A stretch of DNA of 10,585 nucleotides. Origin: a virus. The translations under genes and the position numbers were made by a program. Of the stretch, positions 100 through 10,568 are shown piece by piece (within the stretch, counting starts at the first letter, position 1; each line of letters starts with the position of its first letter). The DNA lies in the UHGV virus genome UHGV-1718691; one strand, written 5' to 3'. The notes under the pieces are model-generated. The model was given only the letters and a program-made list of their open reading frames with translations, was not told the origin of the DNA and ran no database searches.

Positions 100-699
100 T
101 CAGGGGGCCAGTCTAGTGTATGACTGGTTAGCGTTGAATGAGCCAAGAAGTGGCGTACCTGTGGCTGCAGTCCATCCGGTATTTCTTGCTCCAACAACCT
201 GAATTCCATCAACTGAATATGATGTTTTTACATCCAGCGGTGACTCAAGAGACTGCAATTCGGTTACGGTTTTCGATACGTAATCACTCTTAATGCCAGA
301 GACATCGTTTTCTACGTCATCCAGTCTTTGGTCAACAGTGACCAGATGCGCCTGAATATCGATAACCTCATCCAGCAAGTAATCAACATCGCTACGCAGT
401 ACGACTATCTTCCCTTCGGCAGTTGTTAACCTGACCTCAAGTAGATTTATCGCTTTTGTGTTTGCGGTGATTCTTGCGTCGTGATCAGCCAGTTCGACAT
501 CCTGTTCATCGTTTTTCACCTGTGCATCGTAAGCGCCCTGACCAGCCTGATTTGCCTTCCCGGCAATTGCGCCGACATCAGCCCCCTGATTAATGACATA
601 CAACAGGTAAGACTGGCTGAAGATATTGCGTGGAAGGATTGATGTATCGAGCCGCGTCGCCTGCACAATAACAGGAGTGTTGAGATTCGAATCCGCCAT
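100..699 (-). CDS. 26: Tail needle (P22 gp26-like), 199 aa
   Basis: N-terminus [28 protein letters not shown]...[27 protein letters not shown] matches my recollection of the conserved N-terminal domain of P22 gp26; heptad-like coiled-coil segment follows. Start ATG overlaps the gp10 stop (TAATG). Stop TGA at 100-102. Shorter than P22 gp26 (about 233 aa, from memory). Confidence 0.85.
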
Positions 700-2117
700 T
701 ACTCAATCCTTATCTGAGCGCCAGAAAGAGTTACAGGTGACTTCGTGATAACGCGCAATTTGAAGCCAACATTTTTCCTGATTCGCCCGACACGCTTCCA
801 CAAAACGCGTTTGTCGTAAACGAACGGTTCATTCTGCTCAATCATCTGCTCACGACCATAATTTATGCCGTCAGTGGTTGCAGAGAGGAACAGGCGGTCG
901 GCGTACTGCGCAACTCCAGTTGACGATTCAACTTCAAGGTCGAAAACTCTGGCGTTATCCGCTTTGAACAACGGAGTAAACAGCAGGTGTTCCTGTTGCT
1001 TGTCGTACTGGCTGCTGATATCGAACTGCAATTTTCCTGTCATCGATTCAAGCTTATCGCCGCACGTTATCTGATTGCCTTCGTAAATGAAGTCGATAGC
1101 GCGGTACACATCGTCATACAGGCCTGTTTTCAGCACACACCATTGCGGACCATTGGCACTTGAAGATGCGTCGTACACCAGAACATGGCGCGGAAGGTGG
1201 ATAATCAGCAACTCATGCGCATCAAATCGCAGCGATTCCATCACGCCATCAGCCAGTTCATCAGCAGTGTAGGAACGAAGGATTTTCTCAATGCTCGCGC
1301 TGGCGATTGGTGATACCTGACCGGAGCCGATGATATACACAGACGGCGCACCTGTTGCCGGATTGCTGATGAACGCATACGAATCAGCAAACGGCGTTTT
1401 GCAGTAGGTTCCGGCGATTCCTTTTTGCACCATCAGCGATGGCTGTGCGACATACAAAGCGGCACCAACAGTGGTTGCACCTGTCAGGGAGAAATATTCA
1501 ATCGTTGATGAACCAAAGCATACGATGAAGTCTCGCCATGTTCCGATGCCGATGATGCCGTCAGGCTGCGATTCTGCGCGATATTGTGCGCTGTAGCGGT
1601 CAGGATGAGATTCGTCTTCAAGGTCAGTGATAAACCATGAATCAGTACCGTCTTTTGACCACGCATAACGCCCACGTAATCGCGTAATGTCGCGGACTGA
1701 GCCTAACTCATACTGCGTGAATCCGCTGTCTGTAGGCCAGTTTGAGACGGTTTTAACCGTACCATCATAGCGATACTCGACCAGTTGACCATTAACGCCT
1801 ACAGCCTGAGATGTTCGACCATGCGCCATTGATACGCGACCACTTCCGGCGACGTCACCGACTTCACTTTCTCCTTTGTACAGCTTACCACCACATACGC
1901 GATAAACAGCATTCTGCGCCATGTTGTACTCGACGCCCCGCGATACGCCGTTCACATCAGAACGTTTGGCAATGCCCGGGAATGAGCGAAGATATCCGCT
2001 GCTGTTCAGGATTTCTTTGGGTGTAGCCAACATATTCACTGGCAGATAGTCGATATAGTCGGCGTTTCGAAAGTCTTTGCCGACACCTTTCATAAGCGGA
2101 AGTTGCTGAATCGGCAT
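699..2117 (-). CDS. 10: Tail-hub / head-completion protein (P22 gp10-like), 472 aa
   Basis: 472-aa ORF, the same length I recall for P22 gp10, in the syntenic position between gp4-like and tail-needle genes. Start ATG 2115-2117 overlaps the gp4 stop (TAATG). No recognisable catalytic motif; call rests on synteny and length. Confidence 0.85.
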
Positions 2118-2617
2118 TATTCGCTCCCGTTATCGCAAGGTTCCTTTCGGTGGAAGTAATTCCAACCGTTCCACTTCGCCAACTGGTTACCACTACCAAC
2201 AGGCATACGGTTTGGATAACCGGACTTACATTTAGCGGCTTTTGCTCTGTCCATTGCAGACAGTTTGACGAGTCGCTCTTTCCCGTATCTGGCAGTGGTT
2301 ATAAGTTTTGCAGACGCTTCCAGCGCATAATCTGGAGCAATGCGGCAGGCAAGGTTGAAAATGACGGCATTTATAGCGTTATTTGATAATCCGTGCTCAT
2401 CTCCCGGATCTGGAGCGACATCTGCATCAGCAAAAATGTAGCCAACGTTGATACCAGGTGACACATCACCGCCAAGCCATTCAGCCATCATCATTTCAAG
2501 GTCGTTGACGCCATCTTCCATGGACTGAGGTTCGACATCGGTTAACGTGGCATTTGATGCCACACCGAGCTTACGTAATGCCGCAAGAACTAAATCACCC
2601 TTCGTTGTCAGGTTCAT
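2117..2617 (-). CDS. 4: Head-to-tail adaptor (P22 gp4-like), 166 aa from the internal ATG
   Basis: From ATG at 2615-2617 the product [33 protein letters not shown]... is 166 aa, matching remembered P22 gp4 in N-terminus and length. The frame is open upstream to 2731 (204 aa) but that extension overlaps the preceding ORF and has no counterpart in gp4. Confidence 0.85.
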
Positions 2618-2831
2618 CTGCTGCCGCCTTAGGTTTTCGACCAGGCTTTTTACGCTGTTTTTCTTCTGGCTCTGGCTCTGGCTCTGCAACGTCCTTAAGA
2701 AGGTCATCGGGATGTGCAAACCAACCAGCATCCAGATATTCCTGAATCTCTTCGGCTTTCACGATTTCAAAGTCGTAGCCAACGCCTTTCCACTTCTTCA
2801 TGTCGCCATGACGAAAGATCATGTGTGTCAT
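2595..2831 (-). CDS. Small hypothetical protein (78 aa) between coat and gp4
   Basis: ATG at 2829-2831 preceded by GGAG (2838-2841) with 6-nt spacing, located just downstream of the coat terminator. Product [78 protein letters not shown] has a low-complexity charged tail. 3' end overlaps the gp4 start by 23 nt. Confidence 0.5.
2666..2686. repeat. Hexanucleotide tandem repeat (CTGGCT) x3.5
   Basis: Seen directly: ctggct ctggct ctggct ctg at 2666-2686. On the minus strand this encodes the EPEPEPE stretch of the 78-aa ORF. Confidence 0.6.
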
Positions 2832-2844
2832 GTTTGTCTCCAGA

Positions 2845-2867
2845 TAAAAAAGGGAGCCGAAGCTCCC
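2845..2867 (-). terminator. Rho-independent terminator immediately after the coat gene
   Basis: Minus strand reads GGGAGC-UUCG-GCUCCC followed by UUUUUUAU. Stem 2852-2857 / 2862-2867 (extendable by an A-U pair 2851/2868), UUCG tetraloop 2858-2861, U-tract from 2845-2850. Starts 8 nt after the coat stop (2876-2878). Confidence 0.75.
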
Positions 2868-2875
2868 TCTGGTTA

Positions 2876-4171
2876 TCACGCAGTCTGGTTAGGCAGGCCA
2901 ACGCCAATTGCCTCTGGTCGTACAGCACATGCTGAATACCACACAGCAATACGGCACTTACCAGACAGAGTGTTGATATCACCCTGCGTTGCGAAGATGC
3001 CGTTAACACCAATGCCAGGAATGCTGAAGGAAGAAGTTTTCATGCCAGCAAACAGTTCATGGGTTACCGGGATCGGCTGAGACAGTAGGCGGATTGAGTC
3101 ATCAGCCCAGAACACGTTAGCGGTGGTTGTTGCCACGTTCAGAACGTTTACCGGAGTGGTATCAGCAAGAGAAGTGTTTACGTTAGCGTAAGCCTTCTCT
3201 TCTTTTGTCAGTGACGCGTCATCCAGTGCAATCGGTTTCGGCGTGATTTCGATGTGAGTACTATCGATCACACGGGTGATTGAGAAAGTTGCATCATCAG
3301 TCAGCACGTTCTTCGCCATCTGAGACAGGAATTTCACACCAGTGAAGCTGATTTTGTCGCCGCGCTTAAATCCGGTGGTGGAGGATACGGTCACCGTTGC
3401 AACACGGTTGTCGACGTTCTCTTTGTTACCATCGGTATCAAGGGTGTATGCCTGCGGCTTAAACTTCTGCGCACCAGACACAGTTACACCAGTAGCGGTT
3501 GACTTGGTAACTGCCGGAAGTTTCGGTGAGCGAAGAATTTCATCAAAGCCAGCAATCTGACGCTGAATAGTACCGTTGCGATACGCTTCTTCAGGAACGC
3601 GCCCGAAGATGTCACCATCTACCAGGTTGCGGCCTGCTTTACGGTAATCGTCAGGGTTCAGGAAGTAACTGATGCCCATATCGCGGTTTAGCTCACGGGA
3701 GAACATCAGGCGCTCTGCATCAGACACAAAATCCCAGCCAGACAGGCCAGTAGATGGACCAATTGCGCGGGTATCGTGAACAACAAGCGAGCCCATTTCA
3801 GTTGCCTGTTTGGCAATCGCTGACTCAATGTTATTCGCCAGTTTTTTGGCGGATGCCTGGATGCGGCGACGGTAAGAACGCTCATCACGCAGGTCATCTG
3901 CACGAAGCTCGAAGAAATCGTTATCCGGATCGCCCATGTTGCACTTCACGGAGAGTTCCAGAATCCCGGTTGCGTTGCCAGTTAAATCCCAGCCAGTCTG
4001 GGTTGGCGCTTCCTGCTCAACAGGCATCCACACGGTGTTGCTTGAACGCTGCATGGATTCTGCCGGAGGGGTGTATTTTGTCACTTTGGACGCCATTGGC
4101 GTCAGGTTCTGGACGGTTTCGATGATTTCATCCAGAGCATACGTGACTAGTTGACCTTCATTTAATGCCAT
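2876..4171 (-). CDS. 5: Major capsid (coat) protein, P22 gp5-like, 431 aa
   Basis: N-terminus [20 protein letters not shown] and C-terminus ...[30 protein letters not shown] match my recollection of P22 coat protein (about 430 aa), as does ...[12 protein letters not shown]...[10 protein letters not shown].... Start ATG overlaps scaffold stop (TAATG). Stop TGA at 2876-2878. Confidence 0.95.
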
Positions 4172-5095: not shown

Positions 5096-7261
5096 TTATT
5101 GAGGTGTCTCGGCTACTCCGCCGGAGGGGATTTGAACTTGACGCATAAGATTCGCGAAATCCATGCGTTGTGAATGAGTCTGGTCTGCATCTTTAAGAAG
5201 CAGCTCAGCGTTAGCACGAGCATCTTTGCTGCGCTGTTGCTGGAATTGACCTACGAGCTTGAGGTACTCACGCAGTTCTGCCTGCTTGTCGAGGTCCATA
5301 TTGTTGAAGATTTCTGCAATCTTCGCGGCGTTGAGTTGGTTTTGGGCTTCAACCTTGGCGGCTTCAACCTGAATCTGCGCCTGTTGGTTCTCTGCCTTGA
5401 GCAATTCAGCCTGACCTTGCAGAAGGATACCCTGCGCCTGAATTTGCTCTGCTGATGGCTGCTGCGGCTGCTGTTGAGCCTGCTGTACCATCTCCATCTC
5501 TTCAGGTGTTTCTGGCTTCTTCAGCCCCATCATCACCAGTTGCTTGTTCGCGTACTCTCGCATCATCTCGACGCCTTTACCGTCAAGCAGCGTGAAGTAT
5601 TGCAGCATCAGCATCTGGAACTCTGGAGTACCTTGCGGAACCTTGGTGAGCAACTCCTGAATCTCTGCGCGGTTCTGTTCCTTCATACTCTGGAAGGATG
5701 GTCCTACGTCTGTATAGCACTCATAGCGACCGCGAATGTCGTTGAGTGTGACCACATTGCCGGACTGGTAATCGACAACTTGCGCATAGAGTTGAATGTC
5801 TTTCTCGCTTCCATCTTCAAGTGTCAGCGTTACATGACGAGGAACGTCATAAATATCGTTGACCATTGAGGCATAAATCTCGCCATCACGTCGCATTGCG
5901 GTAGCCAGGTTATCCTGAAACACGTATGTCTCAAGGTCTGCCCGCATGTTAAGTTGATTGACGGTATCGAAAGCGACCTGACCATTTGCCGCCTGCGCAT
6001 CCACGCCAAGACTAGCCACTTCTTTCACTGCGTTGGTGGCAGCCTCAAGCATGTAAGCGTTGGCTTGCGGCACTTCAGGGTTTTCCATGTAGGAGATTGG
6101 ACCAATCGGCAGGTCGTTACCGTTTTCATCAGTCCTGTTCTGGAGATAGTACGGATAGTCATCATTTCCACCGTACATGTATTCGTAGCCTTCTATTTGC
6201 TCAGGGAAGAAGGTAGGTTTCTTCTTCGGTGAACGAGCAACAATATCGGCGTTGAATGACATGATCATGTTACGAAGGCGCTGACCGTCTTTCGTCAGCC
6301 TTACCACTCCTTCGTAGCACTCCTTGTCACCAGCGAATGACCATTCGCCGTACACAGGAACGATTGGGATATGCTCTCCGGCTATCTTCTCTCGGTCCTT
6401 CAGTATCTGCGTGCAGGTGATGATCGACTTATACACACGCCGACGCTTGACCTTACGCTCTGCTACCTTAATGAATCCACGATTAGCCAGGTCGTCGATG
6501 ACGTCTTTGATATCCTGCTGGTAATAGCTGACCGGCTCACCTGTCAGCGGGTCGCGGTAGATGAAGACTTTCTCCTTCTTCTCTTCTACCTCGTAATACT
6601 CAGCGACGTAGACGACATCATTCGATACCCACGGAAACAGCCATGTATCGTTCGGATTCTGGAAAGATGGCAGGGTGTCAGGATCAATACCGTAATCCTC
6701 TGCGAACTCTTTCCAGCCATTGCGTGACAAAGCGTTAATCACCGTGCAGTGCTTAGCGTCGCTCTTATCCATCTGCTTGCTGTTGGCGTCCCATATGACG
6801 TGTGAGCAGGCTTCATGGATTGGAAGGCGTCGGATTACCTGATTGTTGCTTGTTGGGTCGTTGTCTTCGTACTGCGTGACCAGACGCCATGCACCAACGC
6901 CGGACTCTATCTGCTCACGAACGCCAACGTTAACGGCAATTTTTGCCGTGTTATGGCGCATATCAGTACGATACATCCCCATCAGCACATCGGCAGCATC
7001 AGGATTAGCTCCGTCTTTTGGTCTGAAGAGAACATCGATAGGGTTACGGCGCATCTCTGCGACCAGTTTCCTGACCACCGGGCGAACAACATCGAATTGT
7101 CCGCGATATTGCAGGGTGGTGTAGTTTGATAGCCAGTCATCCCATTGCGACACTCGGCTAAAATACAGGTCATTTGTCGCCTCGGTTCTGGCTTCATCGC
7201 TCGCCATCCAGTCCGCGTCAAACTTACACAGAATGGAATTGAGTCTGTTTTCGTCGGCCAT
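5096..7261 (-). CDS. 1: Portal protein, P22 gp1-like, 721 aa
   Basis: [43 protein letters not shown]... and the Gln/Ala-rich C-terminal helical segment (...[34 protein letters not shown]...) match my recollection of P22 portal (about 725 aa). ATG 7259-7261 directly abuts the terminase TAA. Confidence 0.95.
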
Positions 7262-9306: not shown

Positions 9307-9549
9307 TTATGCTCCGGTGGTGAACAGGTCTAACGCTTCCTTCGATTTACGCACCGCTTCGATTGTGCGGGTCGTGATATCTGAATTAGCGCCGCCTGAC
9401 TGGAAGTGAATTTTGAATAGCTCAAGCTTCAGCTCGTCAGTGCCAATGAACTGAAATGCTTCTTCTGCGGCTGCGTTCTGGTTCATGACCAGTTTGTAAA
9501 TCTCTAGCTGGAATTTCTGTTCTTCAGTCATGGGAATAATCTCTGCCAT
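9307..9549 (-). CDS. Small acidic hypothetical protein (80 aa)
   Basis: ATG 9547-9549 with GGAG 6 nt upstream; stop TAA 9307-9309. Product MAEIIPMTEEQKFQLEIYKLVMNQ... has net charge about -5. I recall a small ORF of similar size in this position upstream of gene 3 in P22, but not with certainty. Confidence 0.65.
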   Translation of the reverse strand: MAEIIPMTEEQKFQLEIYKLVMNQNAAAEEAFQFIGTDELKLELFKIHFQSGGANSDITTRTIEAVRKSKEALDLFTTGA

Positions 9550-9906: not shown

Positions 9907-10428
9907 TCAGCACGCGATATCGAGAGTCAACTGCAGTTGCTCGCGCCAGTACTCAACATTTGCTTCAATAACCGGCTTATCCCATCGCCAGCGAGCCATC
10001 TCTCTTGCCCCATTGCTGGCTTTTGATTTCCGGTCATCGCGAATGCGACATGCTTGCTCATATTTCTGCTGCTCAGTCAGTTCACCGCGAAGCAGACTAT
10101 CAATGTGCAGGTCGCACCACACAGCAAAACGAGCATCACACCAACGGGCAAATGCAACTGAAAGTTTTGGATGTAGCCACGTACCACCACCCCTGTCCTT
10201 TCGTGCCTTGCTGGTTTTTACATACCTCGATTGTGAGGGATGTAAAATTTGAGATTCTTTCCCGGTCAACGCTTCGTCTAAAGCACGAACGTATTCAAGC
10301 GTTTCTGCCAAACGCATCCAGTTATCAATGCGTTTTCCAAATCTCTCAGCAACACCTGTGACGTTGATCCAACCATCAGTGTTGAAACTGACAATTTCAC
10401 CTTTGTAATTAAGTGGCACGATATTCAT
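9907..10428 (-). CDS. KilA-N domain protein (173 aa)
   Basis: N-terminal region ...GEIVSFNTDGWINVTGVAERFGKRIDNWMRLAETLEYVRAL fits the KilA-N/APSES-type DNA-binding consensus as I recall it (D-G-[YW]-[IV]-N-x-T...GK...W). ATG 10426-10428 with an AGGT Shine-Dalgarno-like sequence upstream; stop TGA 9907-9909. Confidence 0.65.
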   Translation of the reverse strand: MNIVPLNYKGEIVSFNTDGWINVTGVAERFGKRIDNWMRLAETLEYVRALDEALTGKESQILHPSQSRYVKTSKARKDRGGGTWLHPKLSVAFARWCDARFAVWCDLHIDSLLRGELTEQQKYEQACRIRDDRKSKASNGAREMARWRWDKPVIEANVEYWREQLQLTLDIAC

Positions 10429-10543
10429 AACGTTTACCTACCATTTGAAATGAACCTTTGCCGCATAGGAAACCAGCCCACCGAGGCTCGCCAGCACTAA
10501 CTGGTATCCTCAAAGGCCCATTCCAAAGGGGCAGGTTCGGTGT

Positions 10544-10568
10544 AAAAAACATGCGTTGCGGTACGCAT
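10544..10568 (-). terminator. Candidate weak intrinsic terminator upstream of the KilA-N gene
   Basis: Minus strand AUGCGU-ACCGCA-ACGCAU followed by G-UUUUUU (stem 10551-10556 / 10563-10568, U-tract 10544-10549). The stem is only 6 bp with 3 GC pairs. The window edge (10575-10585) reads GGGGCUUUUU on the minus strand, possibly the 3' half of a second, stronger terminator. Confidence 0.4.

Follow-up and report, generated by a model that had tools for sequence, protein, structure and literature searches.

A conserved terminator-type hairpin downstream of the coat gene in a P22-like late operon

The gap that follows the coat gene in the P22-like late operon analysed here carries a real element that looks functional and belongs to a kind already known; an ortholog of it has been annotated and discussed in print. 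It is highly probable that this hairpin is a selected RNA element of the terminator type. Its more precise identification as a leaky Rho-independent terminator, placed at the 3' end of the procapsid gene block in the late operon of a P22-like lambdoid prophage, is likely. A double role, in which a leaky stop and a 3' stabiliser together bias the mRNA toward the procapsid genes, is proposed with moderate confidence.

Anatomy of the site and of the neighbouring genes

The window, i.e., the whole stretch of 10,585 nucleotides that was analysed (UHGV virus genome UHGV-1718691), is a P22-like late-gene block in which every gene lies on the minus strand, in the order small terminase, large terminase, portal, scaffold, coat, small ORF, gene 4, gene 10, and tail needle. 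The coat gene, encoding a major capsid protein of the P22 gp5 type, runs in the ORF list from 4171 to 2876 (minus strand, 431 aa, TGA stop at 2878..2876). Its product is 99% identical to the head proteins of IME10 and CurroJimenez and 73% identical to P22 gp5, and it matches the head-protein families phrog_283 and phrog_22632.

The site occupies the intergenic gap between the coat stop and the Shine-Dalgarno sequence of the small ORF, on the minus strand and thus co-oriented with transcription. Past the stop codon, an 8-nt spacer (UAACCAGA, 2875..2868) leads to the core hairpin, composed of GGGAGC (2867..2862), UUCG (2861..2858), and GCUCCC (2857..2852), that is, a 6-bp stem with five G-C pairs and a 4-nt loop. 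This loop is a C(UUCG)G tetraloop, UUCG being closed by the C2862-G2857 pair. A U6 tract (2851..2846) directly adjoins the stem and opens the U-rich tract UUUUUUAUCU that spans 2851..2842; 3' of U6 come AUCU, the Shine-Dalgarno GGAG of the small ORF (2841..2838), six nucleotides, and the ATG at 2831. The AGA that ends the spacer is able to form A-U and G-U pairs with the three U at the start of the tail, so that the stem can reach nine pairs (2870..2849). The site therefore displays what is expected of an intrinsic terminator, namely a GC-rich stem whose length falls in the range of about 5-14 bp, a loop within 3-8 nt, a U tract directly 3' of the stem, co-orientation with transcription, and a structure that appears to be selected. 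The original prediction had located a terminator 8 nt past the coat gene, and its sequence, coordinates, and distance are all correct; its text gave no strand, the feature being on the minus strand.

RNA folding yields -10.8 kcal/mol for the 16 nt of the core and -14.4 kcal/mol for the hairpin extended to nine pairs, with a folding z-score of about -3.5 and 0-1 out of 200 shuffled sequences folding equally well. In the minimum-free-energy fold, an outer helix partly pairs GGAG with the end of the coat gene. A strict scan, requiring a stem of at least 6 bp, at least five G-C pairs, and a T-rich tail, returned the post-coat site as the sole coding-strand match in the window, and sites of this strict type are expected 0.033 times per 10.6-kb strand according to 300 dinucleotide shuffles. 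With a loose scan, 10 sites were obtained for 10.2 expected, so the class as such is without enrichment; the post-coat site is its strongest member.

Other identities of the region were discarded. A structured-RNA gene was considered and dropped, and Rfam families at gathering thresholds gave no match anywhere in the window. A bidirectional terminator was rejected as well: the plus-strand hairpin continues as UCUGGUUAUC, without a T tail, and only the minus-strand site passed the scan. The plus-strand ORFs lying across the site, antisense to the coat gene and to the small ORF, were not retained as real genes.

The gene located just after the hairpin is a small gene of 78 aa (2831..2595, minus strand), a full-length match to phrog_1175 (E 3e-37). 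It shares 23 nt with the start of gene 4. Its product also matches the N-terminus of the 186-aa phrog_3769; both the CurroJimenez annotation and the RefSeq annotation of E. coli genomes list it as a hypothetical protein. The gene corresponds to P22 ORF69, phage L orf186, epsilon34 gene 6, and Sf101 gp06. An N-terminal M..M(I/L)(F/Y)..G...W(G/K) module is common to all of them, as is a basic C-terminal tail overlapping the start of gene 4. The long forms found in relatives carry the Pfam domain WDGH (PF25311, E 1e-39); the copy present in the window is a short form, like that of P22, and is devoid of WDGH. The gene is of variable length among P22-like phages and non-essential in P22 (PMC2629481). 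The hairpin had been predicted to separate the coat gene from tail-hub genes; this does not hold, the next gene being the phrog_1175 ORF. It is followed by the homologue of gene 4, encoding a head-tail adaptor of 166 aa (2617..2117, minus strand; phrog_637 Ad3, E 6e-67, from the translation), which is the first essential gene depending on read-through.

In the mechanical ORF list, the frame of the small gene is opened at a GTG (2879..2877, minus strand) that overlaps the coat stop, giving an ORF of 2879..2595. The first 16 codons read from this GTG cross the hairpin and the U tract before reaching, in frame, the ATG at 2831. This ATG is the one with the Shine-Dalgarno sequence, and the homologues begin at it; the GTG is a spurious start. 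The frame opened by this GTG had been deemed very unlikely to be translated, which is right for these first 16 codons only, the rest being a real conserved gene of 78 aa starting at ATG 2831. Gene starts are to be corrected in the same way for Brookers gp6 and AH02 gene 6, both annotated through the hairpin, which provides a boundary mark of the procapsid module.

Conservation and covariation of the hairpin

Over the junction, an 801-bp stretch (2500..3300) shares 97.6% identity with IME10 and 95-97% with four further phages of E. coli. A shorter piece comprising the site (441 bp) was found in 217 of 5,426 complete E. coli genomes; thus, the window belongs to a common E. coli prophage type. 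No change in the stem is seen among 80 IMG/VR contigs whose coat is 99-100% identical. Their loop reads UUCG with four exceptions (UUCU in three contigs and UUUG in one), and their T-run is five to seven residues long or takes the form TTTTCT or GTTTTT.

The element extends far beyond these close relatives. A GC hairpin with a U-rich run stands between the coat stop and the next Shine-Dalgarno sequence in 18 out of 18 prophages retrieved with a three-protein coat alignment, whose coats are 65-99% identical. One of these prophages comes from E. coli, one from Shigella flexneri, and 16 from other genera, including Citrobacter, Buttiauxella, Kluyvera, Tatumella, Rahnella, Pantoea, Rosenbergiella, Providencia, Proteus, and Morganella. 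P22 itself displays GGGGC-UGCG-GCCCC-UUUCUUU, and phage L and BTP1 display GGGGC-UUCG-GCCCC. When synteny and sequence were compared with phage L, P22, BTP1, Sf101, and the 18 diverse Enterobacterales prophages, the position was the same, and the hairpin is seen by eye in every P22-type locus with a coat 65-100% identical. It is kept in Sf6-type, Sortsne, Murrayvirus, Kosakonia, and Pseudomonas relatives, the coats of which are only 23-33% identical; the carriers in this range are Sf101, Huey, phiKp_30, Sortsne, Kc166B, ST231, and IME_EC2, together with Pseudomonas phage AH02 and a Manatee Spring metagenomic phage. Only two phages depart from this arrangement, RSK1 and Firinga of Ralstonia; their hairpin (GCCGCCC-UUCG-GGGCGGC-UUUU) lies 3' of one extra ORF overlapping the coat stop. 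Of 24 diverse loci, 18 have a terminator-like site at most 40 nt past the coat stop according to the strict scanner, which detects only 2 more in 138 kb of the same strand; this count of 18 is a lower bound since six loci with hairpins obvious by eye are missed, their U-run being partly inside the stem or interrupted.

A GC hairpin with a U-run is present at this position in all 24 lineages of the alignment used for counting pairs (coats 23-100% identical). In this loop-anchored alignment, 95% of the cells of the core pairs are paired, and sliding the 3' partner column lowers this share to 41-69%. At pair 10-20, 16 lineages have G-C, seven A-U, and one G-U, without mismatches; at pair 7-23, nine have G-C, six A-U, and two U-A. 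Three of the six core pairs are changed on both sides, and the covariation score was reached by none of 500 shuffles, although the pair changes may stem from few independent events. The lone cell classified as "other" at pair 11-19 results from MAFFT setting AH02 one column out of register. The alignment points to a structure, rather than a sequence, as the conserved feature.

Of 26 lineages, 17 have a UUCG loop, and another three carry GAAA or UGCG. T residues average 6.3 in the 8 nt after the stem versus 1.8 in the 6 nt before it, and 25 of these 26 lineages have at least five T in the 8 nt past the stem; the 6 nt located 5' of the stem average 2.5 A. GGAG or GAGG is found at the Shine-Dalgarno position in most lineages examined, and the hairpin ends 7-12 nt upstream of the small-ORF Shine-Dalgarno sequence in most lineages. 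In Sortsne, Kc166B, ST231, and IME_EC2, where the next start is 50-60 nt away, the U-run stays beside the hairpin. Because it is conserved on the 3' side only and remains adjacent to the hairpin when the next gene is distant, the U-run is part of a terminator-type hairpin and not of a ribosome-binding site. Position, compensatory pairs, and U-run together argue for an element kept by selection across the phage family. Conservation of the hairpin in other P22-like phages had been named as a check of the original prediction, which it passes: the hairpin is present there, with compensatory changes.

Known counterparts and transcript levels in phage BTP1

In phage L, a terminator is annotated at the orthologous site (GenBank MW013503, features 6355..6392). 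It is discussed as an intra-operon terminator, the role of which is "not known", with two suggestions, either a partial termination lowering downstream mRNA or the halting of spurious transcription that lacks gp23/gp24 antitermination (PMC8022706). Phage L, ST64T, P22, and BTP1 share with the window the same succession of coat stop, few nucleotides, GC stem of 5-6 bp, UNCG tetraloop, U-rich run, Shine-Dalgarno sequence, gene of the ORF69/orf186 family, and gene 4, in the same setting of a single-promoter antiterminated late operon. The stem is GGGAGC/GCUCCC in the window, with one extra A-U pair, whereas it is GGGGC/GCCCC in the phage L group, and U6 stands here in place of UUUCUU. The phage L record annotates the terminator on both strands; here, the opposite strand has no T tail. 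The interpretation first given to the site is thus reasonable and not new, being essentially that of PMC8022706.

Textbook examples of a terminator or a stable hairpin placed just after the major capsid gene are T7 and M13, and the arrangement is also visible in lambda. The late operon of lambda is Q-antiterminated. Its E/FI junction carries AUGGCCC-UUCG-GGGCCAU 4 nt past the stop of gene E, with U-rich sequence and then the Shine-Dalgarno sequence of FI behind it; it differs by an unrelated capsid family, a 7-bp stem, and a weaker U-run (UUGUUUCUCU). This hairpin bears no terminator annotation in the RefSeq record, and experimental data on it were not found in the literature searched. In T7, RefSeq annotates Tphi between gene 10 and gene 11, directly past the capsid gene and ahead of the tail genes. 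T7 differs in that it relies on its own single-subunit RNA polymerase, a longer hairpin, and a dedicated phi10 promoter for gene 10, without any antitermination factor. Tphi is leaky, and genes 11 and 12 rely on read-through. As in T7, the expression of the major capsid gene of LUZ100 is bounded by a strong terminator just downstream (PMC10134795). In M13/f1, gene VIII is followed by a GC hairpin with U9 and then by the GGAG Shine-Dalgarno sequence of the minor coat gene III. This terminator helps to make gene VIII mRNA the most abundant one; it is a strong terminator in an unrelated virus, where the host polymerase generates a cascade of overlapping transcripts without antitermination. Extra-stable C(UUCG)G hairpins were reportedly described in phage intercistronic regions and terminators by Tuerk et al. 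in 1988 and d'Aubenton Carafa et al. in 1990. The present element resembles them by its UUCG loop closed by C-G and its intercistronic, terminator-like nature, with the restriction that this class is a structural motif and not a functional family, membership being uninformative on termination efficiency.

Transcript data are available for BTP1, in which the post-coat sequence is GGGGC-UUCG-GCCCC-UUUCUU. TPM values cover every BTP1 gene in 17 conditions (PMC7067206, supplementary table 1), and the late-gene signal comes from a spontaneously induced subpopulation of about 0.2% of the cells in lysogen cultures (PMC7067206). From the coat gene to the next gene, these TPM, which are per-gene averages, change by a median of -0.76 log2 (ratio 0.59, i.e., a drop of about 40%) and go down in 16 of the 17 conditions (Wilcoxon p = 5e-5), with a ratio of 0.54 in the eight strongest conditions. 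In the latter, portal mRNA is also below scaffold mRNA (ratio 0.47-0.87). Similar steps occur without any annotated terminator, from holin to R (-0.61) and from gp10 to gp26 (-0.89). Four coding-strand transcription start sites were reported inside the BTP1 capsid gene cluster (Owen et al., PMC7067206).

The BTP1 step is consistent with a partial stop and/or a protected 3' end enriching scaffold-coat mRNA and is not specific to them. This fall and the phage L discussion agree with the roles put forward in the original prediction, in which the hairpin would act as a partial stop or as a protective 3' hairpin. In the literature searched, no 3' ends, termination assays, or half-lives were found for the site in any P22-like phage, and full-text searches on a P22 gene 5 stem-loop, on late mRNA stability, and on Term-seq or ONT of P22-like phages returned nothing specific. 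Which job an intrinsic terminator fulfils inside a Q-antiterminated operon is the question raised, for which the P22-like family offers a good test bed, combining consistent conservation with a step in published RNA-seq of BTP1.

Proposed function and competing explanations

The terminase, portal, scaffold, and coat genes constitute a procapsid block within a single late operon. In IME10, a lambda-type Q gene precedes the lysis and structural genes; therefore, late transcription is expected to be antiterminated and the downstream genes to need read-through, the Q gene being documented in the close relative IME10 only and the abundance step in the relative BTP1 only. Once RNA polymerase has moved past 2852, the C(UUCG)G hairpin would fold fast and U6 would weaken the RNA-DNA hybrid. 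Polymerases without Q modification, coming from spurious or internal starts, would stop at the hairpin, whereas Q-modified late polymerases would mostly read through, some fraction of them terminating. Genes 4, 10, and 26 and the remaining tail and ejection genes would be reached by this read-through, which would be required because they have no promoter of their own. A 3' end at the hairpin, whether left by a terminating polymerase or by trimming of an RNA cut further downstream, would resist 3' exonucleases. The net result would be a modest surplus, roughly twofold, of scaffold and coat mRNA over head-completion mRNA. What has been demonstrated is the anatomy of the sequence with its conservation and covariation; termination, read-through, and stabilisation at the site are inferred. 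Lambda Q-modified polymerase ignores intrinsic terminators, and true termination of late transcripts may be near zero. The shortness of the core stem (6 bp) was counted against the leaky-terminator reading.

Such a step cannot account for the stoichiometry of the virion. In P22, the coat-to-gp4 protein ratio is 415:12, for which a twofold mRNA step is too small, so that the coat excess cannot be ascribed to the mRNA step as the original prediction implied. Since the genes for portal and terminase, both low-copy products, precede the coat gene on a shared transcript, translation must account for most of the stoichiometry.

The hairpin could be an mRNA stabiliser only, on the model of the intercistronic hairpins of other polycistronic operons. 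In that case, Q-dependent read-through would be nearly complete, the hairpin would block 3'->5' exonucleases after downstream cuts, and scaffold-coat fragments would be enriched. This is unlikely, even if the loops are strongly biased to extra-stable tetraloops (UUCG, GAAA, UGCG), if the mRNA of scaffold and coat in BTP1 is more abundant than that of portal upstream and of the genes downstream, for which a terminator alone is insufficient, and if a point mutation in the P22 pid terminator destabilises its transcript (PMC8835761). Indeed, a pure exonuclease barrier needs no U-run, whereas nearly every lineage keeps a T-rich stretch, confined to the 3' side and contiguous with the stem. A safety stop acting exclusively on non-antiterminated polymerases, keeping tail and ejection genes silent without measurable effect on late stoichiometry, seems just as improbable. 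It is among the two possible roles considered in PMC8022706, and the start sites inside the BTP1 capsid cluster could supply such polymerases; however, a sigma-70 scan of the window gave 6 promoter-like sites versus 10.0 in shuffles, none of them convincing upstream of scaffold or coat, and the virulent relatives Sortsne and Murrayvirus, which have no lysogeny, retain the element.

That the hairpin and U-run serve translation of the small ORF, by insulating it from coat ribosomes or by offering a U-rich standby site, instead of acting on transcription or decay, is very improbable. The short distance from the hairpin to the small-ORF Shine-Dalgarno sequence in most lineages, the Ralstonia hairpin located directly before the small ORF and not directly after the coat gene, and the partial pairing of GGAG in the outer helix would all suit this explanation. 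It is opposed by the position of the element at the coat 3' end in the four phages with a distant next start, by the same capsid-proximal layout with unrelated downstream genes in lambda, M13, and T7, and by the small-ORF homologue itself, non-essential in P22 and highly variable in relatives (PMC2629481). A functionless chance palindrome or neutral recombination scar has hardly any probability left. The hairpin sits exactly at a mosaic joint, the downstream ORF type changing right past the T tract, and the loose scan is not enriched overall; against this, a site expected 0.033 times per strand recurs in essentially every lineage, with compensatory changes and a conserved U-run, so that conservation and covariation already effectively refute this explanation.

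Besides the leaky terminator with 3' stabilisation, which remains the preferred reading, a quite doubtful proposal gives the hairpin two further functions: it would close a semi-autonomous sub-operon of scaffold and coat at a fixed end, transcription of this sub-operon coming from internal starts independent of Q, and it would at the same time be a homology "linker" for module swapping. Through the near-universal GGGGC/GGGAGC-UUCG sequence, the procapsid module would be swapped against the variable ORF69/orf186/WDGH gene and the head-completion module. Three observations lean toward this proposal: the hairpin type is incongruent with coat relatedness, the type of the downstream ORF switches right past the T tract, and scaffold and coat mRNA of BTP1 stand above both flanks.

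The terminator at a mosaic joint

In the 80 IMG/VR contigs with near-identical coats (L004-L083), the ORF located 3' of the post-coat terminator alternates between two unrelated-looking types. Identity is lost directly 3' of the T tract (about position 2845 of the window, minus strand) and regained within the ORF, in its C-terminal tail (about 2678, minus strand). In these contigs, the conserved part of the procapsid module ends with the terminator, which thus marks a mosaic joint.

The small ORF of the window (2595..2831, minus strand) belongs to a family present across the examined P22-like and related phages, in which about 45 aa at the N-terminus form a conserved module and the C-terminal tail is basic. 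The long form counts about 186-198 aa and includes a Pfam WDGH domain; short deletion forms, including the window and P22 copies, are of 62-78 aa. Members for comparison are found at L007:3840-4436, L003:3832-4041, and L002:3834-4394.

Several public records around this junction look like annotation errors. The annotated starts of Brookers gp6 (L086:2792) and AH02 gene 6 (L087:2791) stand upstream of the terminator hairpin, with the reading frame passing through it, and IME10 gene 4 (L108:25847) is annotated as a long ORF of 606 nt, the small ORF of this phage being left without annotation.

Hairpins in close and distant relatives

Coat relatedness is not tracked by the hairpin type when the loci L086, L092, L093, L103, L105, L106, and L107 are compared with the window. 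A GGGGC/GCCCC stem is found in Citrobacter, Buttiauxella, and Kluyvera with coats 85% identical to that of the window, whereas the GGGAGC/GCUCCC stem of the window is also found in Proteus, Providencia, and Morganella with coats 65-68% identical. This mismatch suggests that the hairpin either changed repeatedly or was a site of exchange.

Four more distantly related phages with coats of 23-26% identity to that of the window, Sortsne (L085), Kc166B (L089), ST231 (L112), and IME_EC2 (L113), have in common an (A/T)TATACT motif placed 3-9 nt past the post-coat terminator and 50-60 nt upstream of the next gene, which could be a restart promoter. The Ralstonia phages RSK1 (L088) and Firinga (L115) have no hairpin immediately 3' of the coat gene. 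Their terminator, GCCGCCC-UUCG-GGGCGGC-UUUU (about 3430-3460 in RSK1 and about 3130-3160 in Firinga), is located one ORF further on, 3' of a reading frame overlapping the coat stop and immediately 5' of a small 'MLYR.G' ORF. In lambda (L117, NC_001416, 7161-7201), an AUGGCCC-UUCG-GGGCCAU hairpin, not annotated in this RefSeq record, stands 4 nt past the stop of the major capsid gene E; a U-rich stretch and then the Shine-Dalgarno site of FI come next, an arrangement that matches that of the window.

Late-operon transcripts and flanking genes

In the P22-like prophage BTP1, TPM values show a decrease of 0.89 log2 units between gp10 and gp26, seen in 17/17 conditions, and increase again at gp14 and gp16 (PMC7067206, supplementary table 1). 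No terminator is annotated at the gp10/gp26 junction in the record of phage L, a close relative of BTP1. The window ORF at the tail-needle (gp26) position (100..699, minus strand) has no Pfam match at E <= 0.01; with 199 aa, it is shorter than the annotated 233-aa needle proteins of IME10 and CurroJimenez. Upstream of the small terminase gene, the window includes genes for a KilA-N domain protein (9907..10428, minus strand) and a DUF2560 protein (9307..9549, minus strand), and two weak terminator-like sites were flagged there on the coding (minus) strand, at 10568..10551 and 10488..10475.
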